Origin: a virus
DNA length: 64,000 nucleotides
Virus record (IMG/VR): IMGVR_UViG_3300045886_000052
Location: 4,080-68,079 of that record
Reading direction: 5' to 3' (one strand)
Part shown: positions 11,177-38,712 of the stretch, in pieces
Position numbering within the stretch: position 1 is the stretch's first letter
How the letters are laid out: each line of letters begins with the position of its first letter
Made by a program: the position numbers and the translations under genes
Notes under the pieces: generated by a model
Seen by the model: only the letters and a program-made list of their open reading frames with translations
What the model was told of the DNA's origin: nothing
The model's database searches: none

Positions 11177-11206
11177 GCGGGCGGGGCGACTCACCCGCTT
11201 TTTTTT
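11177..11206 (+). terminator. Intrinsic terminator
   Basis: GCGGG...CCCGC stem followed by T8 at a convergent junction. Confidence 0.7.
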
Positions 11207-14974: not shown

Positions 14975-15051
14975 TCTTTCCCCTCCGCGTCCGCACGCAT
15001 AGTCTCTACGGTGTTGCCTGAGCGTTCGTCCCTGGCGCTTCAATCTACGCC

Positions 15052-15917: not shown

Positions 15918-16156
15918 TCTTTCCCCTCCGCATCTGCGTCAACCTCTTCTAAGCGTCCAAGCCTGTCGGCAATGATGTCCAGAATAATGCCGATTTCAGA
16001 ATCTTCGATATTCATCTGCTCTTCCATCCGCTCACACAGCGCATTGAACAAGTCCGCCGCTGGTAGCCTTCTGAAGTATTCGGCTTCTTCCAGATTGGTT
16101 ATCAGCCGATTGGCCCACGCTGCGTCGTATTGTCGGTTAAATTCTTCGTCCGTCAT
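15911..16156 (-). CDS. Hypothetical protein ending VDADAEGKEC
   Basis: GGAGG RBS. Confidence 0.55.
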   Translation of the reverse strand: MTDEEFNRQYDAAWANRLITNLEEAEYFRRLPAADLFNALCERMEEQMNIEDSEIGIILDIIADRLGRLEEVDADAEGKEC

Positions 16157-16193
16157 GTTCCGCCTCCAACCCTAGAGACGGACGCTTGGTTGA

Positions 16194-16397
16194 TTATGTG
16201 CAAGTATTTTTCTCCGCGTCTGCGTCATCTGGAAATTCCATAAACGCTTCAGGCGGCAAATCGTCAGGGTCGAACGGCTCGTCGCAGACACACGACGTAA
16301 GCGGCTCGTCGCATTCGTAGCACCAAACGCTTTCGTCCGCTTCCAGCCAGTCGTCCTCTTCGAGTTCAATTTGTCCATCGTATGCGATCAGGCTCAT
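16194..16397 (-). CDS. Acidic small protein, N-terminus paralogous to 16612-16824
   Basis: MSLIAYDGQIELEEDDWL vs MSLIAHDRQIEFEEDDWL. Confidence 0.6.
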   Translation of the reverse strand: MSLIAYDGQIELEEDDWLEADESVWCYECDEPLTSCVCDEPFDPDDLPPEAFMEFPDDADAEKNTCT

Positions 16398-17475: not shown

Positions 17476-18634
17476 TGCTTTTCTCCTCTCTTATTGTGGC
17501 TGCGCGCAATTGAAGCTCCTCCTGCGGTTGCGGCGCGAATAGCACGCGCCCCACCTCCTCGAGCGTACTCAATCCGCCCGCCCATTTCGTACCGTCCGGG
17601 CGCTCTATTGCGAACTGATCCCAGCAGTCTTCCAGCGCGGCGCGCAACCTGTCGTTTCTCACCGCCCGCCCGTCTGCGCAGACGCGCCAGTCGTCCACGA
17701 TCTTGCGTAGTCGCTCGTTTTCCGCCTCGGCAGCGGTAAGGCTGTCTCGAAATTCACCGGCTATATTAGCCATCCCGTCTCGCTGTTGTAGTAGTGCTTC
17801 TGCCTTCGCCTCGGCTTCTTTGCACCGGCTCATCCACTCGTCGCGTTGTCGAACCGCCTCTACGATTGCTGTATCTTTTGTCTCTCTTTCCGCATCGGCT
17901 TCAACGAGCCGGACGGACACATCGTCAGAGTTTAAACTGAACAGGTCGCGCCACCTGTTGGACTCGCGGGCCATCACATCCCGCGCCGCCTCGGCTTCGC
18001 GCAGGCGCGTCAAAACCACGCGCACAGCTTCAGCCACGCATCGTAAGCCAACGCCGTAGCCGATAGGTGTTTCAAGTAATTCCGAGGCTTCCCGTAGCTC
18101 GGCTTCAAGTTTAACATTGCGCTGCTCGGCTTCGCGCAGTTGCGCTTTCATTTCCTCAAGCGCTACGAGATAGGCGCATGCGCCTTTAGCAACCGGCGGC
18201 TCATAGGGGATGTCCAGTTTTGTCGCTATGTCGCGCGCGAATTGTTCGGCTTCGCGCAGTTTCGCTTCGAGTTCTCTCACCGACGACTCGGCCAGCGCGC
18301 AGTAACGCGATTCGCCTGACTCAACGACGTGCGGACAGGCGTTATCGCGCAGCTTCGATTCGAGTTCGGTGATGCGGTCTTTCAGTGCGACTAATTCATC
18401 GTTGACAACTTTGCCAAGCGGCAGCGTGGTGGGTTCATATGTAACCCAGACTTTTACGCCGGGGCTGCCCGCGGCTATCCGCTCAGCGCATAAATCAGCG
18501 CGGAATTTAGAATAAAACTTCAAGCCCACCATTACCGGCTCGGGGTGTGTGGCGTCCGTCCAACATACTCTGAAAATGTCTCGTGTGCCCTCTTGAGGGC
18601 GCTCGTTATTGTCCATTGATTCCTCTTCGCTCAT
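17438..18634 (-). CDS. Coiled-coil protein with LREAE repeats (Ead-like)
   Basis: Repeated LEAKLREAE; shares a segment with 19256-19495. Confidence 0.7.
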   Translation of the reverse strand: MSEEESMDNNERPQEGTRDIFRVCWTDATHPEPVMVGLKFYSKFRADLCAERIAAGSPGVKVWVTYEPTTLPLGKVVNDELVALKDRITELESKLRDNACPHVVESGESRYCALAESSVRELEAKLREAEQFARDIATKLDIPYEPPVAKGACAYLVALEEMKAQLREAEQRNVKLEAELREASELLETPIGYGVGLRCVAEAVRVVLTRLREAEAARDVMARESNRWRDLFSLNSDDVSVRLVEADAERETKDTAIVEAVRQRDEWMSRCKEAEAKAEALLQQRDGMANIAGEFRDSLTAAEAENERLRKIVDDWRVCADGRAVRNDRLRAALEDCWDQFAIERPDGTKWAGGLSTLEEVGRVLFAPQPQEELQLRAATIREEKSSEPISSNDSRTV

Positions 18635-18660
18635 AATTCCCTTTCCTCCGGCTGTGACGG

Positions 18661-19125
18661 CTAGCGTTTCCGCTTCTGTTCTGCTTGCCAGTCCCGCATG
18701 ATTTCGTAACTGTATTTGTGGCTTTCGACGAACCGCTTGAACTCCTGAAGACCTTCGAGCGACATGGCAAGTTCGCGGTGTTTGATCTGTCTCACGGCGC
18801 CATCTTCAACTACCAGCACGCCGTTATCGTCCGTTTCTTCGCCTGAGTAATTCACTGATCCGCTCAGCGTGACACCGTGCGGCGTCAGTACGTTATCGAT
18901 GAGGTATTGCAACCACTCCACGTACTCGTAAAACTTCTCACCGTAATCCCATTCGATCCCTCGACAATCTTTCGTCAATTGCCATTGGCAGTATCCGCCT
19001 GGCGCATTCGGATCTTCCATTTTCCTGCCGTCGATACCTTCAAGCTCGCGCAACCGCACGATAGCTTCAGCGGGCGGCAGTTTGTCTAAGTCAAATCGTC
19101 CGTGAAATCTTGTCGTATATCCCAT
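18661..19125 (-). CDS. Conserved-looking phage hypothetical protein
   Basis: MGYTT.F.G.F...CQW...WDYGEKFYEYVEWLQYLI. Confidence 0.75.
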   Translation of the reverse strand: MGYTTRFHGRFDLDKLPPAEAIVRLRELEGIDGRKMEDPNAPGGYCQWQLTKDCRGIEWDYGEKFYEYVEWLQYLIDNVLTPHGVTLSGSVNYSGEETDDNGVLVVEDGAVRQIKHRELAMSLEGLQEFKRFVESHKYSYEIMRDWQAEQKRKR

Positions 19126-19255
19126 TGTTGAATTTCCTTTCTATGCTGCTTCTTCCACGGTGGAACCGGTTGCACGCCGCAATTTCTCGCGCAGTTCCAC
19201 GATGGCGTAAAACTGATTCACGGCCTCTTGCGAGTAGTAGGCCATATACCTATGT

Positions 19256-19495
19256 TTACTGCTTCGCTTCCCGTTGCTGGAGATCGCAGGTTGCCGGGTG
19301 AAAAGCTTCCAGCCCGCCTTGGTTGATCTCCATTTGAGGCGGGCATGCATTGCGCGTTCGTCCGTCTCGCTGCTGTGAGAGCGCTTCCGCCCTCGCCTCG
19401 GCTTCGCGCAGTTGCGCTTCGAGTTCGGCTATGCGGGCGTTGGCAGCGTCCAACTCTACTTGCGTGTCAATTAAGTCAAAGTATTCAGCGCTCAT
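19256..19495 (-). CDS. Coiled-coil hypothetical protein
   Basis: RIAELEAQLREAE; GAGG RBS. Confidence 0.5.
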   Translation of the reverse strand: MSAEYFDLIDTQVELDAANARIAELEAQLREAEARAEALSQQRDGRTRNACPPQMEINQGGLEAFHPATCDLQQREAKQ

Positions 19496-21293: not shown

Positions 21294-22067
21294 TTATGCA
21301 GTCCAAAGAACTTCTTGTCGCAGGCGTTGGGCTGCGATTTCAGCGTATTTCTCTTCTATCTCGATACCTATGGATTGCAGCCCTGCATCCTTCGCCGCGC
21401 GCAATGTTGTGCCTGATCCGCAAAATGGATCAAGAACGCAGCCCGCATTGACGGCGCCTAGAATCTTTGCCGGCAACGCTAGGGGGAACGGGGCTGGATG
21501 CGCGTTAACGTCCGGTGCCATCTGCCATACGTCGCCCAGTCCCGAATCGCTTCTTGAACGCAGGCGAAAGTCCGGGCGGGCCAGGAGCAGAATCCATTCC
21601 GACGTCGGCATAAAAGCCGTCGGATTGAAGTTCATGCCGCCCGGGCGTGCCCAGGTAATGATCTGTCTAACCTCGACCTCTTCGGGAATAAGCTCGAACG
21701 GCGTCCAAAGTTTCGCGCCGATCACGCGCGGCTTGTGGTTGTAGAAAATAGCGCCCTTGTCGGTGAGTTTGCGCCAGAGTGCCCGCAGGATCGAGCGCTG
21801 CCAGTCCACGTATTGCGGCCACGGCATAGAATCGTGATGTTGGCCGTATCGTACACCGGCCGACGCGTCGGCGCCGTTCTTCCAAAAGCCCTTGCCTCCA
21901 GCAGAGCCGCCCGGTTTCCAGTGTCCTAGATGCGGCCACGGCGATGCGCCCAGGTTGTAGGGCGGCGATGTGATGACCAAATCCGCCGGGCCCAACTGCG
22001 GAATGATCTGGACGCAATCGCCCAGATATATCGTCGCAAACCCATCCTGGTAATACGGCTTCAGCAT
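21294..22067 (-). CDS. Site-specific DNA methyltransferase (N4-C/N6-A, beta class)
   Basis: TSPPYN, HPAPFP, LDPFCGSGTT, IGIEI. Confidence 0.92.
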   Translation of the reverse strand: MLKPYYQDGFATIYLGDCVQIIPQLGPADLVITSPPYNLGASPWPHLGHWKPGGSAGGKGFWKNGADASAGVRYGQHHDSMPWPQYVDWQRSILRALWRKLTDKGAIFYNHKPRVIGAKLWTPFELIPEEVEVRQIITWARPGGMNFNPTAFMPTSEWILLLARPDFRLRSRSDSGLGDVWQMAPDVNAHPAPFPLALPAKILGAVNAGCVLDPFCGSGTTLRAAKDAGLQSIGIEIEEKYAEIAAQRLRQEVLWTA

Positions 22068-22228
22068 AAGAAACACGCGCTGTGGATACACGCGCGCGAG
22101 TGTGTTTAATTTTAGTGTGGATTGTCGCCGAGCGTTTGGAAGCCGCTCGGCGCCAGTCGCCCTATTGGAAGTAGGACGACGGCAAAAGTCACGATGGCGG
22201 AAGGATTATAGCGAAAGAATTCTATTCG

Positions 22229-23785
22229 TCAATCCCGATCAGAGTCGGACTTAGCCAGAACCGTATAGGTCGTCGTGACGACTAATTTAGAACTGGATAA
22301 AAAGCCGGCCGTCCTGAGGCTCCACCACTTGCCGTTCGCGATTACCTCGATCCGCAGTTCTTCCAAATCGAGCCGCTTTCGCTCGAACGTCAACTCGCCG
22401 GCTGTCTCAGCCGCAAGCCGCGCGCAGGTCTCGTAAACCTGCTCGACGCCCACGCGCCCGCCCTGCTGCTCGCGGAGATCGCGCTCAATCTCGGACGCTT
22501 CCAGGCGCAGGCGTTCGCGCTCGGCTTCGATCTCACCAATCTCTTTTTCAATGAGCGCTGCCACGCGCCCCTCGGCTTTGCGCAATCGTTTTACCAATCG
22601 CTCTTGCTCAGCGCCGCGCTGCTCGATCTGGCTACGAACGATACCGAACCGCGACGTCAATTGCTCGACGATTCCGACCGTGCGCGCCAGGTCGAGCGCT
22701 TCGATGAGGCTGTCAGGATTGTTGACGAGCCACACGAAGCGCTCCCAGACCTCGCGCTCGATCCGGTCGGCGCGCACTGACTTTCCGCCGCAGCGCGTAT
22801 ATCCGTTGTGGTGGCGCTGAAATTCCGAGGCGCAGCGGTAGTAGTAAAGACCGTGCTGTATGGCGACGTACATCCGCGCGCCGCAGCTCGCGCAGAAGAT
22901 CAAGCCCCGCAGCAGCGCCGGTCTGCTCTGGTTGCGCAGCGCCTCGCCGCGGTTCGCGTCGAGCCGTTCCTGCGCTTTGTCCCAAACCTCGGCGTCCACC
23001 AATGGCGGAAAGATCCCGTCCGGCATTCGCAGTAGCTCGCCGCCGTGTCTGTACGCCCACGCCTCGCCCTTGTAGGCGGGATCGCGCAGCAACACGCGCA
23101 ATGTTCCGGGATGCCACTGCCCCTTGCATTCACCGCGAGATGTGAAGCTCGTCGGGACGCCCGAGCGGTTGAGATCCTTACAGATCGTTCGCAGCCCCTG
23201 CCCGGCGCAGACTTCACGGAAAATACGGCGCACGATTTCCCCTTGGGCGTCGTCTATCTCGGCAATCCCCTGCTCGCGGTTTTTCCGGTATCCGAATTTG
23301 TCCCGGCCGCCGCCCCAGATTTTTCCCTCCATCACCTTCTTGCGTTTGCCGCGCATTGTACGGTCGAGGATCTTGCCGATCTCACCGGCGGCTTCGTGTC
23401 CGGCGACGAGCGCCATGATCTTTCCGGCAATCGTCGTGAGGTCGAGCGGATTTCTTATGAATCGGACTTCGGTATTGAAGTGGCGAAATTCAACGAGCAG
23501 GTAGAAAATATCTTCCGCCTCTTCGCCGCGGATCAATCGATCCTGCGCGTAGCAATAGACGATCTGCCGCTCGCTCTTGTGCTGCTCGAGCGCGGCGCGC
23601 AATTGGCTCAGCTCCGGTATGGCGCGCAGGTCTCGCCCCGAAAACTGCACTTCGTACTCGCGGTCGGGCGTGACGCTTACGTCATCGGCTGCCGCGGCTT
23701 CACGGCAGGCGTCAAGCTGGCTTTTGATCGAATATTTTTCCTCGTCGTAGAGGTTGGACTCCCGCGTCCAGATGTAGCCGATCAT
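22229..23785 (-). CDS. Large serine integrase
   Basis: N-terminal resolvase domain (TRES, SG, DRL), FGY recombinase domain, LLRGLIFCASCG..YYRC Zn ribbon, coiled coil. Confidence 0.93.
   Translation of the reverse strand: MIGYIWTRESNLYDEEKYSIKSQLDACREAAAADDVSVTPDREYEVQFSGRDLRAIPELSQLRAALEQHKSERQIVYCYAQDRLIRGEEAEDIFYLLVEFRHFNTEVRFIRNPLDLTTIAGKIMALVAGHEAAGEIGKILDRTMRGKRKKVMEGKIWGGGRDKFGYRKNREQGIAEIDDAQGEIVRRIFREVCAGQGLRTICKDLNRSGVPTSFTSRGECKGQWHPGTLRVLLRDPAYKGEAWAYRHGGELLRMPDGIFPPLVDAEVWDKAQERLDANRGEALRNQSRPALLRGLIFCASCGARMYVAIQHGLYYYRCASEFQRHHNGYTRCGGKSVRADRIEREVWERFVWLVNNPDSLIEALDLARTVGIVEQLTSRFGIVRSQIEQRGAEQERLVKRLRKAEGRVAALIEKEIGEIEAERERLRLEASEIERDLREQQGGRVGVEQVYETCARLAAETAGELTFERKRLDLEELRIEVIANGKWWSLRTAGFLSSSKLVVTTTYTVLAKSDSDRD
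22251..22300. other. Candidate attP: 24-bp imperfect inverted arms around a central GT
   Basis: TTAGCCAGAACCGTATAGGTCGTC-GT-GACGACTAATTTAGAACTGGATAA; 16/24 positions symmetric. Confidence 0.6.
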
Positions 23786-24423: not shown

Positions 24424-24766
24424 AAGCCGTCATCAGCAAGTTTGCCAACGCGGCGGTTAGTCCTGTGAATTGGAGCATCAGGCTATATATTCTGGGCGCC
24501 CACTGCTCCGATTGTTGTAGTTGATAAAATTCCAGCACTCGCACCACACCCAGCCAACCCTGTCCCCTATAGAGCGCAATGGTAATGTTGCTATCTTGCC
24601 GTCTAACAACAATCCAATCACCTGGCGCCGGCTTGGCGTCGTAGTCAACCGTAATAAATAAGTCGCTCTCTTCAACGTGGTAAACAAGTGTCCTGAAACG
24701 GTCTGCTTTTTTAGCCTCGGCCGGGCGTGTGGGCGCGTCGGGACGAGCGCGGTCGATTGAAGGCAT
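24422..24766 (-). CDS. Hypothetical protein, weak S24/LexA C-domain-like pattern
   Basis: VDYDAKPAPGDWIVVR...LGVV. Confidence 0.4.
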   Translation of the reverse strand: MPSIDRARPDAPTRPAEAKKADRFRTLVYHVEESDLFITVDYDAKPAPGDWIVVRRQDSNITIALYRGQGWLGVVRVLEFYQLQQSEQWAPRIYSLMLQFTGLTAALANLLMTA

Positions 24767-24861
24767 AATCGATCCATCCTTTACCGAGATCGTTAATGGA
24801 AGCCGGTGGCGTGTCGCCGGCAGGACGTATGCGATGGAGTCCCGGCAGGGTGGGGGATTCC

Positions 24862-25239
24862 TTACTTGCGGCCTCCTTTCTTGTTCGACCGATCGTTGAG
24901 TGATGCGTCCGTCGTGTGATTTAGAGAAATCGTTTTGTTGATAGATTGCGTGGGAATGTTGTCAGCTTGTCGTTGTAGCGCTTGGACTATCGCAAGCACT
25001 CTTTCCTGGTCCTCTACGGAAAGCTCGTTGAATAGATTTATCAGCATCTGCTCGCGCGGGTTTTTGGAAACGGGCGCATTGTGTCGCGCCTGCCACCCCA
25101 GTACGACAAGCTGTCTTGAATATGTGCCTGGGGCGATGCCCAGCGCCTTGCCTTCATCCTCAATGGCACGTTTCAGCGAGGGCTCGACCTTTACCCCCAA
25201 GTTTTCAAGCGACGCTTTGTTGGCTTTTGATCTAGGCAT
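24862..25239 (-). CDS. Putative immunity repressor, ribbon-helix-helix-like
   Basis: NLGVKVEPSLKRAIEDEGKALG N-terminus; LINLFNELSVEDQERVL C-terminal helix; divergent position. Confidence 0.6.
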   Translation of the reverse strand: MPRSKANKASLENLGVKVEPSLKRAIEDEGKALGIAPGTYSRQLVVLGWQARHNAPVSKNPREQMLINLFNELSVEDQERVLAIVQALQRQADNIPTQSINKTISLNHTTDASLNDRSNKKGGRK

Positions 25240-25276
25240 AATTTTAGTTTACCGAAATCACGCATTAGGGACAAGC

Positions 25277-25320
25277 GTTAACGTAGGGGCTTGACAAGTT
25301 AACTTTGTAAGCCATATAGT
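25277..25320 (+). promoter_or_regulatory. Sigma70 promoter with two GTTAAC boxes; probably leaderless
   Basis: TTGACA 25291, 18 nt, TATAGT 25315; GTTAAC at 25277 and 25298; ATG 6 nt downstream. Confidence 0.75.
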
Positions 25321-25326
25321 GCGCCC

Positions 25327-25569
25327 ATGGTCGAATCCAAACCCAAACAACGTAAGCGTCGAGCCGGGCGACCACTCAAGCCGGAAGCTGAAAAATTTGT
25401 CCTCCTGGGCGGCAAAGTGCCTCCTGAAATGCTTGCCGCTATTGAGGAAATTGCGGGGGAGCGGAATTGGACACGATCTGCTGCCGTCCGCGCGGCCTGC
25501 GCCCTGCTGATCAAGCATGAGACGGCAAGAAAAAATTTGCTGGTTAACGAAAATCTCTTGACAGGTTAA
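25327..25569 (+). CDS. CopG/RHH regulator in the Cro position
   Basis: GRP...GGKVPPEMLAAIEEIAGERNWTRSAAVR. Confidence 0.75.
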   Translation: MVESKPKQRKRRAGRPLKPEAEKFVLLGGKVPPEMLAAIEEIAGERNWTRSAAVRAACALLIKHETARKNLLVNENLLTG

Positions 25570-25586
25570 CTAAAATAACCGATACT
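25543..25586 (+). promoter_or_regulatory. Second sigma70 promoter with two GTTAAC boxes
   Basis: TTGACA 25558, 17 nt, GATACT 25581; GTTAAC at 25543 and 25565. Confidence 0.75.
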
Positions 25587-25750
25587 CCGCTTGTCAGTTG
25601 ATAACGCTCCTTGAATCCCCGAATACGATAACCGCCGCGGTAGGTTGGTTGGGTGGTCACGGAGTAACGCACTCGTTAAGACGGCTCAGCGCTACGCAAG
25701 GCGGAAACGGCAACCTGGGGATTCGAGGGGCGATCAAACACGGAGACATT

Positions 25751-26044
25751 ATGAAAATCGCCACTTGCAAAATTTGCCGCCGAAGCCTGAAAAACGAAGC
25801 CAGCGTCGCCAGGGGCATTGGCCCCGAGTGCGCCGAGAGATTCGTGTGGATGAAATCGAACGCGGGCCTGACACTCGAAGCCCTCGACATTTCCGAATCG
25901 ATAGCGGCCGATCCCGTAGTCGCTCGCTGTCTCCACTTTGCCGAACTGGCTTTGCTTATTGGCAGACGGAGCGACATGGAGCGCTTCAAGATCAGCGCGC
26001 GGGACGCGGCGCGAAGAGCCTCGGCGCTGACGGAGGTTGCATGA
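25751..26044 (+). CDS. DUF6011-like Zn-binding protein
   Basis: CKICRRSLKNEASVARGIGPECA; GGAG RBS. Confidence 0.75.
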   Translation: MKIATCKICRRSLKNEASVARGIGPECAERFVWMKSNAGLTLEALDISESIAADPVVARCLHFAELALLIGRRSDMERFKISARDAARRASALTEVA

Positions 26045-26355
26045 CGCCAAAATGCCTACACTGCGAAAACGACAACGGCCGTGATTTTCCGGTCTGCGGC
26101 GACTGCGAATCCACCTGCCACTTCACCAGTCGAACGGATTGCCGCTGTCTGGCTTGCGAGGACGCGCGCGACTTGGCGCAGCTTCCGGCGGCGCTGCAGG
26201 ATCGATTCAAAGATTCCGTCCTGATCGCGACGTCCGACGACGAGCCGGACAAGGTCAGGGTTCCGTTCCGGTTTGAATATCTCAAGCCGGAAATCCGACA
26301 GCGCGTTGCTGTGGCGCTCGCGGAGACGGTGAAAGAGTGGGCCAAAGCGGCCTGA
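26041..26355 (+). CDS. Cys-rich hypothetical protein
   Basis: GGAGG RBS; ATGA coupling. Confidence 0.6.
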   Translation: MTPKCLHCENDNGRDFPVCGDCESTCHFTSRTDCRCLACEDARDLAQLPAALQDRFKDSVLIATSDDEPDKVRVPFRFEYLKPEIRQRVAVALAETVKEWAKAA

Positions 26356-26454
26356 AGCGCGCCACGCGGGCGCAATGGGCAATGGGCGACGGCAAACGTC
26401 GCGATGGCAATGGCGGGGCGGTTTGGAAGGCCGCTTCGCGGAAAGGGAGCAGAT

Positions 26455-26769
26455 ATGAACCTAATCAAGGTTGGCAATCTGATTCTAAACCTCTCGCAAT
26501 TGATCGACGCGGAATTCACGCCGGCTTCTGGCGGCGTGGACGAAGAGACAGGCCGGCAGTTCAACCGCATGGCCAAACTTGAATTGCGCTTTGCCGGTCC
26601 GCAGTCAGAGCCGCACACCAACTACGACGGCGATTACGTCGGTTTCGCCGATCATTCGCCCTACTCTCGAATCCTGCGTGGCGAAGAAGCTGAAGAAGTC
26701 TTCAGCGAACTCTGCATGAGGGACACCCGCAAGCCGAAGGAAACGGGCAGATCGCAATCTGCCGGCTGA
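26455..26769 (+). CDS. Hypothetical protein
   Basis: GGGAG RBS. Confidence 0.6.
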   Translation: MNLIKVGNLILNLSQLIDAEFTPASGGVDEETGRQFNRMAKLELRFAGPQSEPHTNYDGDYVGFADHSPYSRILRGEEAEEVFSELCMRDTRKPKETGRSQSAG

Positions 26770-27890
26770 TCTTTTCAAAGTCGAGACGACGGGGATCGTT
26801 TCGATTGCGCGGCGGACGATCACGGGGGCCGTCCAGCCGCTTTTACCGGGGCGCGGTGTGGCCATAGCAGGGAGTCACGCCGCGTCTCCGGGTTTCGATC
26901 TTTTACAAGTTTGGCCGTGGAGGCTTTTTAGCAAGTCCCACCGTTGGGAACCTGTTCCGTGCGATTGAACGCTACCCGAAAGGGCAGACTCTCTATATCG
27001 GATGAATCCCTTTAAGCGGCGATAACGCGAGCGCACGCAACGGCCAAAGACCTCGGAAGCGTTCCCACGACCGCTTCCGATTGCAGGGCGCGGCGCTGTT
27101 CGGGCAACTCGGCGCCGCGCCCGGTGGGAATGATCTTTTCCAGATTGGCGAACCGGTTATGAGAGTGGCCATCGCCAATGCCACCGGGGGCGGGTTGTTG
27201 TTGTTTGTTGCTTATTGGCGCCCGCCTCCGGTTCGATCTTTTACATTTCGATATTCCAACGGGCGGGTTCTATTGGTGACGGAACAGAGCGAGAAACCCA
27301 CGGGGGCATCCTGCGCAATCGGGGACGGCGCTGCTTACAGAACCGATAAGGGTGTGCCGTCACCAATAGAGCCCGCCCGGGTCAATTCGATCTTTTACAG
27401 TTTGGCGGCGGCGGTTGTGGATGGACACGCCGGCAAAACCGAGGAAGGCAATAGCCGAGAGCAGGAACTAGGCCGATGTACTCGGGTCGGCCAGGGCGCT
27501 CACCCTGGAAGCCGGTATCAAGCCCGGCCCGCCGCCAATCCGATCTTTTACATCTTGATATTCCAACGGGCGGCGACAGTAACCGTCTTCAGGTGATCGA
27601 CGGCGATCACGTGCGACAACGCCAAAGTAGGTACACCGGGAGACTAGCAGCCCCGGATATCCCGAGAAGGCGGACGGCCAAATGGAGTGTGAAGAGTCGC
27701 CAGCGGAAAGTCAGCGTATGCCCAACTTGCAGAAACCTGACTTGACTTCGCCGGGTGGAGAGAACCCGGCAGTTCGATCTTTTACAGTTATGGCTGCGGT
27801 ACGGTGTGCCAGCACCGCAGCCGCCCATAAACGAATCGGCAGCCGCTCGTAACGACTGCCGATGTTGCTCTGATTGAATTATCAAAGAGC
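26768..27890 (+). ncRNA. Non-coding array: seven boxA-like GATCTTTT(A/C) motifs, each followed by hairpins
   Basis: GATC at 26768, 26897, 27132, 27235, 27389, 27542 and 27776; many long GC-rich stems; no credible ORF. Confidence 0.65.
27408..27537 (+). ncRNA. tRNA-like element with an oversized central region
   Basis: Acceptor-like GCGGCGG/CCGCCGC, D-like GTG-GATGGA-CAC, T-like GCCGG-TATCAAGC-CCGGC; no canonical anticodon arm. Confidence 0.45.
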
Positions 27891-27901
27891 CAGGACACTT
27901 T

Positions 27902-28159
27902 ATGACATCCACAATCCCCCGCCACGCCGACCGAAGCGCCGATTCGCTGCGCACCATGCGCGATATGGTTGATCGTGTTGAGCGCAATCTGCGCGACGGA
28001 TGGCTTTCCGATGATCCAATCGCCAGGGAGCACGCCGAAGCGTTACTCGGAGACGCCAGACTGATCTGCGACGAATTGTTGAGAGCATGCCGTAACCCTA
28101 CACCGCTTCAACCCCACGATGAAGTGCTAATACGAACTGATAAAGCACGGGATTTATGA
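27902..28159 (+). CDS. Hypothetical protein
   Basis: AGGA RBS; coupled to next gene. Confidence 0.55.
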   Translation: MTSTIPRHADRSADSLRTMRDMVDRVERNLRDGWLSDDPIAREHAEALLGDARLICDELLRACRNPTPLQPHDEVLIRTDKARDL

Positions 28160-28572
28160 GCAGTATTCCGACACCTCACCTGAATGAAAAGTCGCTCGAA
28201 GAACTGGAGATATTCGAGCTGCTCGCAAAAGTCATAGGACGCGGAGAGGCCGCCAGGTTGGCCAGATTGTACGGTTGCAGTGAACAGACCGTGCGCAAAT
28301 GGCGCAACGATCCCGAGGCGGACGACGACAAAGAGGCCGACCCGCATGGGCGAAGAAGTCCGGTCGAACTCTTCCTGCGATTCATGGACGCGCTGAATGC
28401 GATTAGTCCGGCTCGCGCTAGCACGGTCTGGCGCAGGGTCGAGTATGAGTTCGCCGACATGCAGCGCATACAGGGTAATGACGCGATGATGAAGAGATGG
28501 CAGGCGATGAAAAAGGCCAACGACCTGGCGCGGGAGATCGTCGCGGTTACTAACGGAGACGACGATGGCTAA
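28156..28572 (+). CDS. HTH protein (CII-like regulator)
   Basis: AARLARLYGCSEQTVRKWR. Confidence 0.6.
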   Translation: MSSIPTPHLNEKSLEELEIFELLAKVIGRGEAARLARLYGCSEQTVRKWRNDPEADDDKEADPHGRRSPVELFLRFMDALNAISPARASTVWRRVEYEFADMQRIQGNDAMMKRWQAMKKANDLAREIVAVTNGDDDG

Positions 28573-28747
28573 ACGGCCACCGCTGAAAGATCACGACGTG
28601 ACGATTCCGCGCAAGGGTCGGGAACCGAAAGAATTGCCGATAAACGCGCCAAGTACCGAGGCCGCCGAAGCATTGGCGGCGCGCATTGCGAAACGCCGAG
28701 GCTGGAAGCTGTCGGGAAAACCCAAAGCGGAGGAGAAGAAACCATGA
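28565..28747 (+). CDS. Hypothetical protein
   Basis: Overlapping, coupled ORF. Confidence 0.5.
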   Translation: MAKRPPLKDHDVTIPRKGREPKELPINAPSTEAAEALAARIAKRRGWKLSGKPKAEEKKP

Positions 28748-29055
28748 ACCTGACGCAAATGGAAAACGCATACGCATTCGCTGATCCGCTGCCGGCGGTT
28801 GAGACAATTGATCGGCTGGAGGAACTGGTAACGCAGCGCCGCCGCGAGTTGATCATCGAGCACAATCGCCGGATTCAACTGGAAACATTCGACGATAGGT
28901 TCCCCGGCCCGGACTGGCAGGCGTCGGACAAGCGTGTGCGCCTCGTTGACCAGATCGCGCAATCCGAACAGCGGCGCGCGAGGATCAAGCAGGAGATCGT
29001 CGAGGTCGCGCGACTGATCGTGGCCGAGAATCACGGGGAAGGGGTGAGATTATGA
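28744..29055 (+). CDS. Hypothetical protein
   Basis: GGAG RBS; ATGA coupling. Confidence 0.55.
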   Translation: MNLTQMENAYAFADPLPAVETIDRLEELVTQRRRELIIEHNRRIQLETFDDRFPGPDWQASDKRVRLVDQIAQSEQRRARIKQEIVEVARLIVAENHGEGVRL

Positions 29056-29255
29056 ACAGAAAAGCGGAACAACCTTACACGCTGAAGAAGATTGAAGGGC
29101 TGGACTGCCTGATATGCGGCGAGCCCGCAACCTGCGCCGTGCTGTCCTGGCACAAGGTCGGCGCGGCGTGTGAGAAGCACGGGCGGCGCGCGAAGGAGCT
29201 GGGGTATGAAGTGCTGTTCCCCGGCGACGGGACGCTGACGGTCAAGAGGGTTTAA
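29052..29255 (+). CDS. Small Zn-binding-like protein
   Basis: CLICGEPA...CEKH. Confidence 0.55.
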   Translation: MNRKAEQPYTLKKIEGLDCLICGEPATCAVLSWHKVGAACEKHGRRAKELGYEVLFPGDGTLTVKRV

Positions 29256-29285
29256 CTGCCGCGAAGGCGGCGCGAAAGAAAACAT

Positions 29286-29543
29286 ATGAGCGAACAGTTG
29301 CATGTTACGCCGAACCTGATTTGCCAATGCGAACACAATCTATTGAGCCACGAACACTATCCGCCGGAGGCTGATCATTGTGGGTATCCAGGTTGCAAGT
29401 GCGATTACTTTGTCGGGAAACCCACGCCGCCAGACGTTATCGACGCAATCAAGCTGCTCGGCGCTTACGTAAAAGAAAAACACTATGCAAGCGTCAAGAT
29501 TGGGCCGGAAGGCGGCGCATATTTTGAACTGAAGATGATATGA
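29286..29543 (+). CDS. Cys/His-rich protein
   Basis: CQCEH...H...C...C.C..F. Confidence 0.55.
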   Translation: MSEQLHVTPNLICQCEHNLLSHEHYPPEADHCGYPGCKCDYFVGKPTPPDVIDAIKLLGAYVKEKHYASVKIGPEGGAYFELKMI

Positions 29544-29740
29544 GCGAATTGAAACCAATAACAGACGTGCGCGTTCCGTGCCGGTTCTGCGGAAAAGTCA
29601 TTTGGGCGCAATCGGACAATGGCGAACCGACATGCGCCGATTGCGACGAATTGGAAATGGCGTCACTGCGCGAGTCGCACGAAACCGAGTTGACGCTGCG
29701 CCCGATTACGGAATGGGCTCATCCGTGGAGCGGCGAATAA
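29540..29740 (+). CDS. Small CxxC protein
   Basis: CRFCG...CADC; ATGA coupling. Confidence 0.5.
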   Translation: MSELKPITDVRVPCRFCGKVIWAQSDNGEPTCADCDELEMASLRESHETELTLRPITEWAHPWSGE

Positions 29741-29951
29741 ACCTTTCCCACCCCCGGTCCGCGCCCGGCCGGAGTGGGAACGCAGTAATGGGCGCGGCGG
29801 TTTCGGCGTCGGTTGGGGGATCGTCGCCGAATGGATTCGGATACTTATGCAGGGCCCCGCCGCGTTGGTCTTAGAAGAATTTGCTATTCACTATCGGAGC
29901 ACAATCGCGGTGATCCCGCGTCGCGGCGGGGCGGTTAAAAGAAAGGGAACT

Positions 29952-30263
29952 ATGCTCAAAACACTCGGTCTCGAAATTATCGAAATCAACAAGGCGAACG
30001 GCTGGAATGTCACAACGCCTGATGATTGGGGCGATACATACAAAGTCCCTGGCGTGCTGGCGCTGATTCACTCTGAAGTATCAGAAGCGCTTGAGGGCTT
30101 CAGGGGCGGCGATAAGGCGAACTTCGAGGAAGAGCTTGCCGACGTGCTTATCAGGGTTTTGGATTGCGCCACCGGGCTTGGACTGGACCTGGATACAGCA
30201 GTCGCGGCCAAGCTGGACAAGAACCGGGCGCGCAGTTTTCGCCACGGAGGCAAGCGGCTATGA
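29952..30263 (+). CDS. MazG-like nucleotide pyrophosphohydrolase
   Basis: LIHSEVSEALE...EEELADVLIR...K...N..R. Confidence 0.85.
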   Translation: MLKTLGLEIIEINKANGWNVTTPDDWGDTYKVPGVLALIHSEVSEALEGFRGGDKANFEEELADVLIRVLDCATGLGLDLDTAVAAKLDKNRARSFRHGGKRL

Positions 30264-30358
30264 AACACGATCTGAATTTCTTTCGTGGGCTTATCTGGGC
30301 GGGCGTATTGTCCGCGCCGTTCTGGGTGGCGGTGATATGGTTGAGTCAGGCCCGATAG
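30260..30358 (+). CDS. 32-aa TM peptide
   Basis: GGAGG RBS; FFRGLIWAGVLSAPFW. Confidence 0.5.
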   Translation: MKHDLNFFRGLIWAGVLSAPFWVAVIWLSQAR

Positions 30359-30402
30359 TTTTTCTTGCCGCGATCGGCGGCGCAAATAACCAAGGAGTAA
30401 TT

Positions 30403-31218
30403 ATGAGTACCGCATTGATAAAGCAGGAACAAGCGAACGGACTGGTTTACAGGCCGGAACAGGTTCAACTGATAAAAGACGTGTACGCGAAAGGCGCAAG
30501 CGATAACGAACTGGCGTTGTTCATTGAGGTCGCGCAGCGCAAGGGACTGGATATATTCAGCCGGCAGGTTCACTTGGTGAAACGATACGACAGCCAATTG
30601 CAGCGCGAGGTAATGGAACCGCAAACCGGCATTGACGGCTACCGCTTAATGGCTGAACGCACCGGCAAATACGAAGGCCAGCTCGGGCCGTTCTGGTGCG
30701 GATCGGACGGTGAATGGAAAGACGTTTGGCTTAGCGACGCGCCGCCGTCCGCCGCGAAAGTCGGAACGCTGAAAGCCGGCTGTCGCGAACCGTTCTGGGC
30801 CGTCGCTCTGTACAAGGAATATGTCCAGACGCGCAAGGACGGCCAACCGAATTCAATGTGGAAAAAAATGGCCGCGAACCAGTTGGCCAAGTGCGCCGAG
30901 GCGCTGAGTCTGCGCAAGGCGTTCCCCGGCGATCTGGCCGGTATCTACACGCAAGAGGAAATGGCGCAGGCGTCGAATGTGGCGCCGGTTGAGATAGCGG
31001 CGGACGTGGAAGAAGCGGCGGCTGTTATTGATCCCGACTATGAAGACGCGCGCAACGCCATACTGGAAGAAATGCAGGACATTTATATCGGCAAGGGTAA
31101 GACGCAGGAAGAGTGGCTGAAGTACCGGAAGGGACTGGCCGCGAAGACGTGCGAACAACTGGAAGTAATGTTGGCGAATTGGCAGACCGCTGCCGAGTCC
31201 ACGAAGAACGCTGGCTGA
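30403..31218 (+). CDS. bet: Phage single-strand annealing protein (Bet/RecT family)
   Basis: GIDGYR, WKKM...LAKCAEALSLRKAFP..LAGIYT.EEM. Confidence 0.9.
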   Translation: MSTALIKQEQANGLVYRPEQVQLIKDVYAKGASDNELALFIEVAQRKGLDIFSRQVHLVKRYDSQLQREVMEPQTGIDGYRLMAERTGKYEGQLGPFWCGSDGEWKDVWLSDAPPSAAKVGTLKAGCREPFWAVALYKEYVQTRKDGQPNSMWKKMAANQLAKCAEALSLRKAFPGDLAGIYTQEEMAQASNVAPVEIAADVEEAAAVIDPDYEDARNAILEEMQDIYIGKGKTQEEWLKYRKGLAAKTCEQLEVMLANWQTAAESTKNAG

Positions 31219-31254: not shown

Positions 31255-32418
31255 ATGGATATTGAAATCGCAAAAATCAGGCAGGATGGCGGGACGCAGC
31301 CGCGCGCGCAAATCAATCTACTTACGGTTGGCGACTACGCTGAAGAGATGCGCGCGGGCGTTAGGTTTCCCGACGTGGTTGTCTTCTTTGACGGAACGGA
31401 CTACTGGCTGGCCGACGGGTTCCATCGAGTTTTGGCGGCGACAGCGGCAAAGTTGAAAGCTATTAACGCCGACGCGCGGCAGGGGACGCGCCGAGATGCC
31501 GTTCTATTTAGCGTCGGCGCAAACGCTAGCCACGGACTGCGGCGCACGCACGAGGACAAGCGCCAAGCCGTGCGGACGCTGCTCGAAGACGAAGAGTGGA
31601 GCAAGTGGAGCGACGCAGAGATAGCGAGGCGCACCGGCACTAGCCATCCATTTGTAGGCGAGCAACGAAAAATTCTCACTTGTAACGTTACAAGTGAGAA
31701 TGGCGAGCGTCAGTATACAACCAAGCATGGGACACCCGCCGTCATGCATACCGACAATATCGGCAAATCAAGCGTGCTTCTTGATATGGTTCCCGAAAGC
31801 GACATCCTGCAGGCCGCAATGGATATTCGCATTAAGCGCGCCGTGGAAAACCGGGAGAGAATACAGGCTATTAAAGAGCAGCCTATCACTGTCCCTAAAG
31901 GAAAGTTCCAAACCATCGTCATTGACCCGCCGTGGCCAATGGAAAAGATAGACCGCGACACGCGCCCAAACCAAGTCGGCTTCGACTATCCGACGATGAG
32001 CGAAGAAGACCTAATGGACTGGCCGTTATCTAAATTCGCCGCCGACAATTGCCACCTTTACTTATGGACAACTCACCGCTTTCTACCTATGGCGATGCGG
32101 CTTGCTGAACATTGGGGCTTCACTTACCAATGCCTGATGACGTGGGTTAAGAACGTTGGAATGACGCCGTATTCATGGATGTATTCAACTGAGCATGTAC
32201 TGTTCTGTCGGCGCGGCTTCCTGTCGCTTGAAAAGCTAGGTATGCGCCTGGACTTCCGCGCCAACGTGCGAGAGCACAGCCGCAAGCCCGACATATTTTA
32301 CGAAATTGTACGTCAGGCGTCACCGGGGCCGCGCCTTGATATGTTTAGCCGCGAACCGCGTGAAGGCTTCGAGCAGCACGGCAACGAGGCCGCGAAGTTT
32401 CAGGGGGTGACGGCTTGA
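31255..32418 (+). CDS. ParB-N/HTH fused to an MT-A70 family adenine methyltransferase
   Basis: LADGFHR; WSDAEIARRTGTSHPFV; IDPPW, YPTM, HSRKP, LDMFSR. Confidence 0.88.
   Translation: MDIEIAKIRQDGGTQPRAQINLLTVGDYAEEMRAGVRFPDVVVFFDGTDYWLADGFHRVLAATAAKLKAINADARQGTRRDAVLFSVGANASHGLRRTHEDKRQAVRTLLEDEEWSKWSDAEIARRTGTSHPFVGEQRKILTCNVTSENGERQYTTKHGTPAVMHTDNIGKSSVLLDMVPESDILQAAMDIRIKRAVENRERIQAIKEQPITVPKGKFQTIVIDPPWPMEKIDRDTRPNQVGFDYPTMSEEDLMDWPLSKFAADNCHLYLWTTHRFLPMAMRLAEHWGFTYQCLMTWVKNVGMTPYSWMYSTEHVLFCRRGFLSLEKLGMRLDFRANVREHSRKPDIFYEIVRQASPGPRLDMFSREPREGFEQHGNEAAKFQGVTA
31672..31701. repeat. Perfect 30-bp palindrome inside the ParB-MT-A70 gene
   Basis: ATTCTCACTTGTAACGTTACAAGTGAGAAT is its own reverse complement. 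Confidence 0.95.
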
Positions 32419-35981: not shown

Positions 35982-36400
35982 CCGACCGTATCACCACAAC
36001 CGAATACCGCAACCTGCGGCGCGCGTCCGAGTCGCGGCTTGAGTTCACTATCCCCGGCCTGCGCGTCGTCAGCGAAGCCAACCTGCGCGACTCATGGCCT
36101 GCGCGGTTCCGTCGCAAGAGAGCGCAGCAATTTGAGGTCCACGCCGAATGGAAGCGGAACGCGCGCGGCGTCAAGATTACTCTTCCCTGCGTCGTGCGAT
36201 TGACTCGCATTGGCCCGCAGCGGCTCGATGACGACAACCTCGGCTCTGCGTTCAAGGGGGTTAGGGATCAGATCGCCAAAGAGATAGGCGTCGATGACGG
36301 CAGCGACCGGATCAAGTTCGAGTATGCGCAGTTGGCGGTGGGCAAAAGAATGTATGGGGTGCAGGTGCAAATTTATTGCGGGGAAACAAGCCAGTGCTAA
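35978..36400 (+). CDS. RusA-like Holliday junction resolvase
   Basis: RLDDDNL..AFK.VRD...GVDDG. Confidence 0.7.
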   Translation: MTDRITTTEYRNLRRASESRLEFTIPGLRVVSEANLRDSWPARFRRKRAQQFEVHAEWKRNARGVKITLPCVVRLTRIGPQRLDDDNLGSAFKGVRDQIAKEIGVDDGSDRIKFEYAQLAVGKRMYGVQVQIYCGETSQC

Positions 36401-37380
36401 ATGCGCCATTTCCATATTTCGGAGGCAAGTCGCGCGCGGCTGAACTGATCTGGTCGCGATTCGGTAGAGTCGTCAATTACGTCGAGCCCTTCTTTGGTTC
36501 CGGCGCTGTCCTTCTTGGCCGTCCGCGTCCGTTCGCAGGCGTGGAGACGGTCAACGATATAGACGGGCTGCTTGCGAACTTCTGGCGGGCGTTACAGCGC
36601 GATCCTGAAGCGGTCGCATTCCACGCCGACAACCCGGTAAATGAAAACGACCTGCACGCGCGCCATATCCGGCTCGTCGAGAACCGCGAAACAACCTCGC
36701 GCAGGCTTGACGGCGACCCGGATTACTTCGACGCCAAACTTGCGGGTTGGTGGGTTTGGGGTATTGCGTGCTGGATCGGCTCCGGCTGGTGCAGCGGCAG
36801 CGGCCCCTGGCGCGCAGTCGAAGACGCCGAAGGCTTTCGCCAGCTAGTCCACCTTGGCGATCAGGGACGGGGCGTGAACCGCCAGCTAGTCCACCTTGGC
36901 AATCAGGGCCAGGGCGTGAACCGCAAGCGAGTCGAGTTGATCGAATATTTTTCAGAACTTGCCGACCGCCTGCGCGAAGTGCGCGTCTGCTGCGGCGATT
37001 GGCGGCGCGTCACCGGGCCGAGTGTGACGACGAAGCATGGCCTAACCGCAATGTTGCTCGACCCGCCATATGCTGACACCGCCGGGCGGCAGGCGGAACT
37101 CTACGCAAAAGATTGCCTGCGGATCGCGCACGAGGTTCGAGAGTGGGCGATTGCGAACGGCGACGACCCGCTTATGCGCATCGCGCTTTGCGGATACGAA
37201 GGCGAGCACGACATGCCCGGCAGTTGGGAATGCGCCGAATGGCATGCGCGCGGCGGCTATGATGGACAGAGCAAAGATAAATCCACAATCGGACAGAACC
37301 GAGCGAAAGAGCGGGTGTGGTTTTCGCCATATTGCATACAGGAAACGCTGCCGCTTTTTATGGAGGCAACCAATGGATGA
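36394..37380 (+). CDS. Dam-like (D12 class) DNA adenine methyltransferase
   Basis: PFPYFGGKS, YVEPFFGSGAV, ETVND, LDPPY. Confidence 0.9.
   Translation: MLNAPFPYFGGKSRAAELIWSRFGRVVNYVEPFFGSGAVLLGRPRPFAGVETVNDIDGLLANFWRALQRDPEAVAFHADNPVNENDLHARHIRLVENRETTSRRLDGDPDYFDAKLAGWWVWGIACWIGSGWCSGSGPWRAVEDAEGFRQLVHLGDQGRGVNRQLVHLGNQGQGVNRKRVELIEYFSELADRLREVRVCCGDWRRVTGPSVTTKHGLTAMLLDPPYADTAGRQAELYAKDCLRIAHEVREWAIANGDDPLMRIALCGYEGEHDMPGSWECAEWHARGGYDGQSKDKSTIGQNRAKERVWFSPYCIQETLPLFMEATNG
36838..36921 (+). repeat. 42-bp in-frame tandem repeat x2 inside the Dam-like gene
   Basis: RQLVHLGDQGRGVN / RQLVHLGNQGQGVN. Confidence 0.9.
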
Positions 37381-37948: not shown

Positions 37949-38058
37949 CCTCCGCCTCAATGCCCATTGCTGAGCCACAGAGGGCGCTGGCTGAACGAAC
38001 GGCGTCTGGGGCGGGGGATGGTATGCCGAAATCGGCGGCGGGCTTCTATGGCGAAATT

Positions 38059-38712
38059 ATGACGAAAGGCAAACCGAGACTTTTAGACCTCTTTTGCGGC
38101 GCCGGTGGGTGTACTGCCGGATACCAGCGCGCGGGGTTCTGGGTTCGCGGCGTGGATATAAAACCGCAGCCGAGATATTGCGGGGATGAGTTCGTGCAGG
38201 CTGACGCGCTGGAATATCTGCAAGGGCTGATTGATTCGGGAGAGGTTGAAGAGTTCGACGCGATACACGCGAGCCCGCCGTGTCAGGGCTACGCGGCAAC
38301 AAAGGTGCTAAACCCAACAGAACACCCGCTGCTTCTAGAAGACACGCGCCGGCTGTGCAATGAAAGCGGCAGGTTCTACGTGCTTGAAAACGTACCGGGC
38401 GCGCCGCTGCTGAATCCTGCGCGGCTGAACGGGCAACTCTTTGGCTTAATGGTGGACAGAGAACGCTGGTTTGAGTGTGGCGGCTTTGAAGTGCCATTCG
38501 TGCTTCTGCCATCACCACGTAAGGCCGTGAAAATGGGGCGGCAAGTGCGAGAGGGCGACGTTATACAAGTCGTCGGTAATTTTAGCGGCGTTGATTACGC
38601 GCGCCGGGCAATGGGTGTTGATTGGATGGTTCGTAATGAACTCTCGCAAGCAATTCCCCCGGCCTACACCGAATTTATAGGCAAGCAACTGATTGAGGCA
38701 ATAACGCGATGA
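38059..38712 (+). CDS. Short C5-cytosine methyltransferase-like protein
   Basis: LDLFCGAGG, ASPPCQ, ENV, QAIPPAYT. Confidence 0.85.
   Translation: MTKGKPRLLDLFCGAGGCTAGYQRAGFWVRGVDIKPQPRYCGDEFVQADALEYLQGLIDSGEVEEFDAIHASPPCQGYAATKVLNPTEHPLLLEDTRRLCNESGRFYVLENVPGAPLLNPARLNGQLFGLMVDRERWFECGGFEVPFVLLPSPRKAVKMGRQVREGDVIQVVGNFSGVDYARRAMGVDWMVRNELSQAIPPAYTEFIGKQLIEAITR

Follow-up and report, generated by a model that had tools for sequence, protein, structure and literature searches.

The DNA considered here, hereafter the window, is a stretch of 64,000 nucleotides (nt) corresponding to bases 4080-68079 of IMG/VR record IMGVR_UViG_3300045886_000052, which is complete, measures 68,079 bp and carries direct terminal repeats. 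The record is that of a temperate soil phage, whose serine integrase (22229-23785) is transcribed leftward with other genes, and whose early (recombination/replication) rightward operon contains a 1.1-kb non-coding array (26768-27889) in which seven copies of a boxA-like motif each precede a different folded unit. A preliminary description of this DNA had already placed the array in an early operon, and the flanking genes of the temperate phage bear this out. Upstream, a consensus scan identified two sigma-70-like matches on the plus strand, TTGACA-18-TATAGT at 25291-25320 (11/12 match) and TTGACA-17-GATACT at 25558-25586, both of which are candidate early-right promoters for the array. Between these and the array lie a weak ribbon-helix-helix open reading frame (ORF) and two ORFs without an assigned family. 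The last ORF before the array (26404-26769, plus strand; codon score 0.218) has no match to any Pfam or PHROG family; its likely start is the ATG at 26455, which has a GGGAG box ahead of it, and its TGA stop (26767-26769) overlaps the first motif. The first ORF downstream (27902-28159, plus strand) is followed by genes for a helix-turn-helix (HTH) protein (28156-28572), MazG, RecT, an MT-A70/ParB methylase and replication loaders. All genes flanking the array are on the plus strand, both here and in two related phages, L119 and L167, described below.

The seven copies of GATCTTTT(A/C)(A/C)A (GATCTTTTMMA) are all on the plus strand within 26768-27786, starting at 26768, 26897, 27132, 27235, 27389, 27542 and 27776. 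These positions reproduce both the spacings of 129, 235, 103, 154, 153 and 234 nt given in the preliminary description and its division of the copies into two spellings, with (T/C)CGATCTTTTACA found in five copies and TGATCTTTTC(A/C)A in two. The number of copies expected in the window by chance is 0.09, and none of 100 shuffles reached seven (maximum 2). In the entire 68,079-bp record CGATCTTTTACA occurs five times, always forward and always in the array, with no control hits, while allowing up to two mismatches adds 10 window matches, approximately the chance number (10.1). Scored in bits against a matrix of natural boxA sites (see below), the copies are motif 1, CTGATCTTTTCAA (26766-26778; 14.9 bits), which lies 8 nt downstream of the hairpin GGCAGAT-CGCA-ATCTGCC; motif 2, TCGATCTTTTACA (26895-26907; 17.2 bits); motif 3, ATGATCTTTTCCA, the weakest copy (27130-27142; 12.6 bits); motif 4, TCGATCTTTTACA, followed by the leader TTTCGATATTCCAAC (27233-27245; 19.8 bits); motif 5, TCGATCTTTTACA (27387-27399; 17.5 bits); motif 6, CCGATCTTTTACA, followed by the leader TCTTGATATTCCAAC (27540-27552; 15.9 bits); and motif 7, TCGATCTTTTACA (27774-27786; 17.5 bits).

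The array is non-coding and structured. Between 26770 and 27889 each of the six frames contains 6-13 stops, and the codon scores of the array frames (-0.06 to -0.25) compare with +0.27 for 18 confident genes, in agreement with the earlier view that no protein is encoded here; conserved small proteins were also looked for, and none is supported by codon scores or by the relatives. The longest ORF (171 amino acids, 27081-27596) was rejected as a gene, having a codon score of 0.041, no Pfam family and no counterpart in the relatives, and the motif occurs within it in three different frames. Similarly rejected was a 32-codon open frame in unit 2, which has no start codon and in which all differences among the three phages alter the amino acid.

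The sequences between the motifs, which the preliminary description regarded as unrelated to one another and strongly folding, do fold strongly: the plus-strand z-scores of units 1 to 7 are -4.35, -2.15, -4.10, -5.56, -2.42, -1.80 and -4.09, compared with -1.72 to +1.20 for 12 pieces of flanking genes of the same sizes. Unit 1 (26779-26894) consists of three successive hairpins with a minimum free energy of -65.0, versus -48.4 for the minus strand. The core of unit 2 (26908-27049) is a 140-nt module closed by TTTGGCCGT/ACGGCCAAA and kept in L119 and L167, past which stand two further hairpins (27053-27122), TCGGAAGCG../..CGCTTCCGA and GGGCGCGGCGC/GCGCCGCGCCC, the latter with 11-nt arms that are 100% complementary. 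Unit 3 (27143-27232) is formed by two hairpins, ATTGGCGA..TCGCCAAT and CCGGGGGCGGG..CCCGCCTCCGG, and unit 4 (27246-27386) by a single long hairpin whose 27-nt arms (27260-27286/27353-27379) are 93% complementary. Unit 5 (27400-27539) is closed by TTGGCGGCGG/CCGCCGCCAA (10-nt arms, 100% complementary), unit 6 (27553-27773) ends in the hairpin CCGGGT-GGAGAGA-ACCCGG, and unit 7 (27787-27889) comprises three hairpins, all of these units being read on the plus strand. Units 4 and 6 have in common a 47-nt leader (87% identity) containing GATATTCCAACGGGCGG. The stems quoted in the preliminary description, namely the long stem of unit 4, GGGCGCGGCGC/GCGCCGCGCCC, TTGGCGGCGG/CCGCCGCCAA and the closing helix of unit 2, were all recovered, as was the longer leader common to units 4 and 6. 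Closure by one long-range helix is clear in units 2, 4 and 5 and partial in unit 6, whereas units 1, 3 and 7 are strings of local hairpins with no single closing helix; in units 2, 3, 4, 5 and 6 the closing-helix strand begins 1-19 nt past the motif. No Rfam family matched anywhere in the window at its gathering score, and matches in 26300-28300 were at chance level only, so that a check of the array by folding and against known families yielded strong structure but no known RNA; ARAGORN found no tRNA in the array, which contains 348 G and 310 C.

A hairpin lies 7-13 nt upstream of the motif in all seven copies, and the motifs themselves are single-stranded in the predicted RNA folds, with unpaired probabilities from local-folding prediction at percentiles 93-99 among the 1113 11-mers of the array (percentile 93 for motif 1, 99 for motif 2, 95 for motif 3 and 99 for motif 7). 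Two other identities do not fit the array. Intrinsic terminators would not have a T run beginning 7-13 nt past the stem, and the scan identified no terminator-like site on the plus strand of the array. Clustered regularly interspaced short palindromic repeats (CRISPR) or tandem antitoxin repeats would be regular and approximately 25-40 nt long, whereas the shared part here is only 11-14 nt (47 nt in two units), the spacings range from 103 to 235 nt and the sequences between the copies show no relation to one another.

The likeness to boxA was assessed with a matrix built from 41 unique rrn leader/spacer boxA sites at 38 16S loci of other bacteria, the loci coming from one phylum (61 genomes) and one order (56 genomes). 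Applied to the two strands of the window, the matrix places the array copies at ranks 2, 4, 5, 6, 9, 10 and 17; six score 14.9-19.8 bits and fall within the ten best window sites, and the remaining copy scores 12.6 bits. Sites of at least 14.9 bits number 10 in the window compared to 0 or 1 in each of 20 shuffles. When only the flanks and tail were scored, the copies ranked 2, 5, 6, 8, 9, 11 and 16 among the 46 window sites that match the core. The motif is thus boxA-like in the sequence of its tail as well as its core, and the earlier identification of the motif as boxA-like holds as far as sequence likeness is concerned. Natural rrn boxA forms in the survey include GCTCTTTAACAA, GTTCTTTACAATT and G(C/T)TCTTTGACA. 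Forms of the type G-A-TCTTT also occur naturally in rrn operons (GATCTTTGACAATTG, GATCTTTAAAAA, GATCTTTAACAA, GATCTTTCACAATC and GATCTTTCAAAATC), with GATCTTTGACAATTG itself in the leader and/or spacer of L175, L176, L178, L202 and L203, and GATCTTTGACAATTG and its relatives together in those of L175, L176, L178, L181, L200 and L202-L205. Two sets of matches were set aside, namely those to GATCTTTKAMMA in five bacterial genomes, which are not near rRNA genes and were taken as chance, and strong matrix matches in L140, which are antisense within a coding gene.

Published work provides several points of reference for this likeness. In lambda nutR boxA, G35, C38 and U39 matter for binding of NusB:NusE (PMC2800207), and in our alignment the counterparts of all three are kept in all seven copies. 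The search pattern used for gammaproteobacterial boxA is GYTCTTTAANA (PMC5725501), and in Bacillus subtilis rrn operons a small hairpin stands directly before the boxA-like consensus AUGAUCUUUGAAA, which is reported to associate directly with NusB (PMC13753749). For the rrn antitermination complex, boxA is described as necessary and sufficient, and in the proposed model it anchors the leader strand until the trailer appears, with a boxA-boxC spacing of 18-19 nt (PMC10250234), a distance with which the 1-19 nt between motif and closing-helix strand in units 2 to 6 may be compared.

The best boxA-like site of the window lies outside the array, at 10877-10910 (plus strand), where the 6-bp hairpin GTAAGC..GCTTAC is directly followed by GATCTTTGAAAA (22.9 bits). 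It is located between a SWIM-like ORF (10456-10818) and ORF 10937-11170 of a small plus-strand operon, and this latter ORF ends at a strong terminator-like site (11179-11208). The phage therefore seems, judging from this sequence match, to use the pairing of hairpin and boxA outside the array as well.

Arrays of the same kind are present in two relatives, so that the comparison with related phages suggested in the preliminary description could be made and showed that units have been gained and lost. The first relative, L119, is a complete virus record of 59.5 kb whose RecT is 76% and HTH protein approximately 61-65% identical to those of the window phage; at the equivalent place it has a gene-poor gap (approximately 4960-5580) headed by a hairpin and one TGATCTTTGAACAA, the sole such site in that record. 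The second, L167, is a metagenome contig of 71 kb; in its reverse complement, the orientation used here, an array of approximately 890 nt past a small early gene contains the sites CGATCTTTTCAAG and TGATCTTTGAACAG, each after a hairpin GCCGG-(A/G)(A/G)AGA-CCGGC. A hairpin followed by TGATCTTTGAACA is thus present in both relatives, and their layout, and nearly their sequence too, matches the B. subtilis arrangement of hairpin and AUGAUCUUUGAAA (PMC13753749). BoxA-like sites number seven in the window, two in L167 and one in L119.

The 140-nt module of unit 2 is found in all three phages (L119 5175-5322; L167 1940-2087, minus strand) at 84-90% identity, far above that of the flanks, and the homology ends exactly at the closing helix. 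Other parts are shared piecemeal: motif 7, its hairpin and the following ACAGTTAT match the second L167 site (1800-1845 of the reverse complement); hairpins sharing the base of unit 5 are found in L119 and L167, and the base TTGGCGG/CCGCCAA is seen in hairpins of all three phages; L167 also has a sequence corresponding to the GATATTCCAAC leader; the second hairpin of unit 3 resembles the one that ends the L167 array; and the final 17 nt of unit 7 are kept in L119. These shared modules and features indicate that the arrays have a common origin and that they evolve as modules are added or dropped. In unit 2, the only unit with relatives, 1 of the 42 predicted pairs is compensatory (UA to CG) and one changes to a wobble among the three sequences, which gives the covariation expected of a conserved structure minimal support; 10 of the 13 columns that vary fall at unpaired positions, and one GNRA loop is altered from GAAA to GCAA. 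The consensus fold of this unit has a free energy of -54.4 kcal/mol on the minus strand compared to -48.8 kcal/mol on the plus strand.

Searches for further relatives were negative. A covariance model of unit 2, run over 594 kb from 47 sources, recovered no sequence beyond the three used to train it, and blastn of 26300-28300 against 50,697 phage records identified no relatives, nor did searches of viral contigs with the two flanking ORFs or with the protein adjoining the L167 array. Alignment of the HTH protein identified nothing in genome or metagenome contigs and only the L119 contig among viral contigs. Around RecT genes, the motif was found in none of 36 viral loci and unit 2 only in L119. 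A 14-mer scan of viral contigs gave, among the matches listed, single chance matches, and a 20-mer from unit 2 gave one false match, within a tape-measure gene (L155). Rfam gave no match in the L119 array at E values up to 1 and one match at E 0.73 in that of L167. By eye, L119 4996-5183 shows a 7-bp acceptor-like stem (CGGACTG/CAGTCTG) and a T-arm-like GAAGG-TTCGATT-CCTTC, with ACCA right before the unit 2 homologue, and the equivalent place in L167 has a stem and TTCCA; a tRNA-like reading of this region was rejected, since ARAGORN and Rfam were negative and the fold z-score is -1.07. In L125, an unrelated RecT-bearing viral contig (14.6-kb locus), the 13-mer TAAAGTAACTTTA is present in ten same-strand copies and its near-palindromic partner TAAAGTTACTTTA in six, dispersed over the locus.

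The conserved borders of unit 2 bear on the proposal that the motif acts in DNA, as a one-orientation protein site, a Dam-linked GATC site or a recombination junction. Protein sites that act as road-blocks, known as stoperators, occur in cluster A mycobacteriophages, and the motif is asymmetric, one-oriented and tightly conserved, as such sites would be; in addition, the phage encodes a D12-class adenine methylase, and modules differ between the relatives. However, unit 2 keeps its exact borders in relatives without an adjoining motif, and the motif is therefore not the exchange junction of unit 2. Furthermore, the promoter-like sites, at which an immunity repressor should act, have no copy on or close to them, GATC is common everywhere (7.2 per kb across the window, compared to 9.8 per kb within the array), and the spacings of 103-235 bp are irregular. 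A role at the DNA level is consequently regarded as highly improbable.

Evidence on RNA comes from a single soil metatranscriptome run (X10), the stretch also being present in nine soil DNA runs. A single 341-letter contig of X10 matches 27571-27889 exactly at a depth of 8.4, and nothing else of 24500-30500 is covered, the uncovered parts carrying no information on expression. This evidence is one contig of one run, which may be DNA, and contigs do not show strand. Because the contig spans motif 7 uncut and links unit 6 to unit 7, not every unit is an RNA by itself. The preliminary description had suggested that each unit is a small RNA of its own, a suggestion that fits poorly both with this joined contig and with the composition of units 1, 3 and 7 as strings of hairpins. 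At 27571, which is the foot of a helix 19 nt past motif 6, the contig is joined to 22 extra adapter-like letters that we take for an Illumina adapter end; on this reading, fragments of the library repeatedly ended at this position. The side on which the adapter lies would point to a plus-strand RNA with its 5' end at 27571, provided that the letters are such an adapter end and the library was dUTP-stranded. From this single contig, it is proposed that part of the array, units 6 and 7, accumulates as a discrete RNA. Two side observations concern the same region: a GATATT in the leader of units 4 and 6 (27557-27571 region) ends 9 nt before 27571 and is a possible -10 box, with no -35 at a usable distance upstream of 27571, and the loose ends and one joint that occur within GC-rich hairpins in DNA runs X7-X9 were taken as contigs of other organisms.

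The sharp contig end at the foot of a helix, 19 nt past motif 6, is what processing or trimming would leave, and it is an argument for the motif being some other single-stranded RNA signal, such as an RNase E-type cleavage site or the site of another RNA-binding protein, with its boxA likeness a coincidence. Such a signal would also accommodate the U-rich make-up of the motif, its place in open linkers flanked by strong hairpins, and the block-wise gain and loss of modules among the relatives. Yet the contig is uncut across motif 7, the tail of the motif and not just its U run fits natural boxA, and the variants in the relatives (TGATCTTTGAACA) shift toward the boxA consensus. Additionally, no candidate RNA-binding protein or nuclease was found among the 108 ORF translations scanned with Pfam or the 23 scanned with PHROG. 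On balance, we consider a signal of this other kind unlikely.

The other end of the contig, at 27889, falls beside a boxA-like site on the minus strand, GCTCTTTGATAA (27890-27879), which points into the array and, at 18.4 bits, is the third-best site in the window. The homologous site of L119 (approximately 5558-5569, minus strand) is GTTCTTTGAAAA, whose 21.3 bits make it the best of its 14.7-kb locus, and the two differ only where natural boxA sites also vary. No minus-strand boxA-like site was found at the right edge of the L167 array. The plus-strand letters at 27879-27890 are the complement of boxA and could pair with it; in L119, 8 + 4 pairs were counted by eye between the complement of the right-edge site and the head site. 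It is conceivable that the functional transcript is at least partly the minus strand, a leftward non-coding RNA starting near 27890 and headed by this canonical boxA, with the plus-strand motifs secondary. Besides the rank of the two sites and the end of the contig, the folding of 27571-27889 and of units 2 and 7, which is better on the minus strand, would suit such a transcript, as would, slightly, the unit 2 consensus. Against it, no minus-strand promoter-like site was found in 24800-28600, L167 is without the right-edge site, the genes on either side are plus-strand genes in each of the three phages, the plus strand gives units 1 and 3 the better fold by 12-17 kcal/mol, and the energy total is approximately 22 kcal/mol lower on that strand by a hand sum over units. 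Moreover, the fixed contig end, joined to the putative adapter, is at 27571 and not at 27889. Leftward function of this kind is therefore judged quite improbable.

The reading that we prefer is that the seven motifs are boxA-type RNA signals, putative NusB/NusE (S10) sites on an untranslated, folded early rightward transcript, to which we assign a probability of roughly 0.45. It is supported by the sequence of the motif and is consistent with the position of the array between plus-strand genes and downstream of two promoter-like sites. Motif 1 is placed at the stop codon of the last upstream gene, where the RNA would lose its ribosomes, and each later motif occupies, in the predicted folds, a short open linker just past one hairpin and just before the next folded module. 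This layout of hairpin, boxA, 5' strand of a closing helix and folded RNA would be that of an rRNA operon. Each boxA may load or reload the Nus antitermination complex onto RNA polymerase, and the polymerase would then cross the RNA that is not translated and reach the genes for recombination and replication without being lost to Rho. In addition, the tethered 5' strand of a module could be held until its 3' partner is made, which would favour formation of the long-range helices. Binding by Nus factors, antitermination, a chaperone action and the strand to which the detected RNA belongs are what we infer here and not what was directly observed.

The number of sites also raises the possibility of a decoy, in which an abundant phage RNA with many boxA copies draws NusB/S10 away from host rRNA operons or tunes the supply of Nus factors, in line with the Nus-factor sponge mentioned earlier for this array. 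Seven sites exceed what read-through needs, given that the relatives have one or two, and the detected RNA carries motif 7 in an open linker. The hairpin before each motif, the closing helix after it and the location of the first site at a stop codon nevertheless fit action in cis, and the arrays of the relatives could hardly titrate anything, making a decoy very unlikely in our view.

Several observations weigh against boxA function of the seven motifs. With respect to the motif itself, the matrix sites were chosen by a pattern that fixes the core, such that only the tail test is independent; the exact form TTTT-ACA occurs in none of the 38 rrn loci, the nearest being 1-2 changes away; and the five near-identical copies are paralogues and not independent events. 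With respect to the RNA, AU-rich linkers within GC-rich RNA look accessible whatever their role, covariation is minimal and favours neither strand, the RNA contig, which may come from either strand, crosses motif 7, and 27571-27889 folds better as the minus strand (z -5.0 versus -2.3). The window and L119 also each have, on the opposite strand, a strong boxA-like site directed into the array. Finally, G-rich, tightly folded RNA is a poor loading substrate for Rho, and the array, being of this type, would be a poor Rho substrate anyway, and relatives that manage with 1-2 sites show that seven are not required for read-through.

A more far-reaching version of the boxA reading is that this phage and at least two relatives run a miniature 'stable RNA operon' in the style of an rRNA operon, in which modules of a new kind of phage RNA are each launched by a hairpin and boxA of their own, with a borrowed host Nus/chaperone complex that would take polymerase over the 1.1 kb of bare RNA and fold and release the products, and in which the opposite-strand boxA may allow convergent transcription. 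We put this forward as a speculative and doubtful extension. If the boxA reading is true, seven-fold boxA punctuation before different modules would extend the Nus machinery to the making of phage non-coding RNAs, and the succession of hairpin, boxA and folded RNA would be a simple sequence flag for RNA islands in uncultivated phages. The 140-nt unit 2, which has no Rfam match and is present in three phages, and the RNA at 27571-27889 are concrete candidates for new phage RNAs.

The TerL of the phage has relatives that are 41-51% identical, from phages of several proteobacterial and other hosts, and the nine genomes with RecT loci belong to diverse phyla. A search for a close TerL was negative in the 56 genomes of the order with GATCTTTGACAA-like rrn boxA, the form nearest to the motif. 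Two integrases, one of the tyrosine and one of the serine type, and four DNA methylase domains (N6_N4, MT-A70 fused to a ParB-like part, D12 class and C5) are encoded in the window, the ORFs of the two groups together being 13182-14012, 21294-22091, 22229-23785, 31255-32418, 36376-37380 and 37960-38712. Dispersed repeats occupy the regions 5944-6840, 14971-16396 and 17990-19405 and include AGGGATTGCTGGCG (4 copies), TCATTCTTTCC..TCCCCTCCGCGTC (4-5 copies, ahead of small minus-strand ORFs) and CTCGGCTTCGCGCAGTT (4 copies).

The boxA/Nus complex is textbook material for rRNA operons and the lambda N system, with one or two sites per transcript, and no description of arrays of the present kind was found in the literature searched, at the level of titles and abstracts. 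Among systems with boxA outside rRNA, the suhB leader and others resemble the array in that boxA controls Rho on ribosome-free RNA (PMC5725501), and boxA before CRISPR arrays is also mentioned (PMC13753749). However, the cases of the suhB type have one boxA per transcript, whereas here boxA-like signals punctuate the RNA, and the motif, although close to the gammaproteobacterial pattern GYTCTTTAANA (PMC5725501), departs from it at two positions. Lambda-type nut sites are similar in belonging to a phage early operon, with a boxA-like element near hairpins, downstream of an early promoter and before recombination and replication genes (PMC2800207, PMC10250234), and a purine-rich loop (GGAGAGA) is found in the hairpin ahead of motif 7, the corresponding L167 hairpins likewise having purine-rich loops. 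Identity with a lambda-type nut site was nonetheless rejected, because the order of boxA then boxB is not found and a hairpin precedes all seven motifs, an arrangement that is the rrn order in 7/7 copies. The array further differs from lambda in that no N-like protein family was recognised among the early ORFs in Pfam and PHROG scans, and in that seven copies lie on one arm and none on the leftward arm. In rrn operons, boxB-boxA-boxC stands in the leader and again in the 16S-23S spacer, and leader and trailer pair in helices (PMC10250234, PMC13753749). The array resembles this design in that a hairpin precedes a boxA-like element predicted to be unpaired, which in part of the units is followed by the first strand of a helix closing the folded RNA over a long range, in that the signal recurs ahead of successive RNAs of one transcript, and in its G-A-TCTTT form of boxA. 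The scale is different, with two signals in 5 kb in rrn operons compared to seven in 1.1 kb here, and the array is made up of phage-borne modules of 90-225 nt that are not all closed by one helix.

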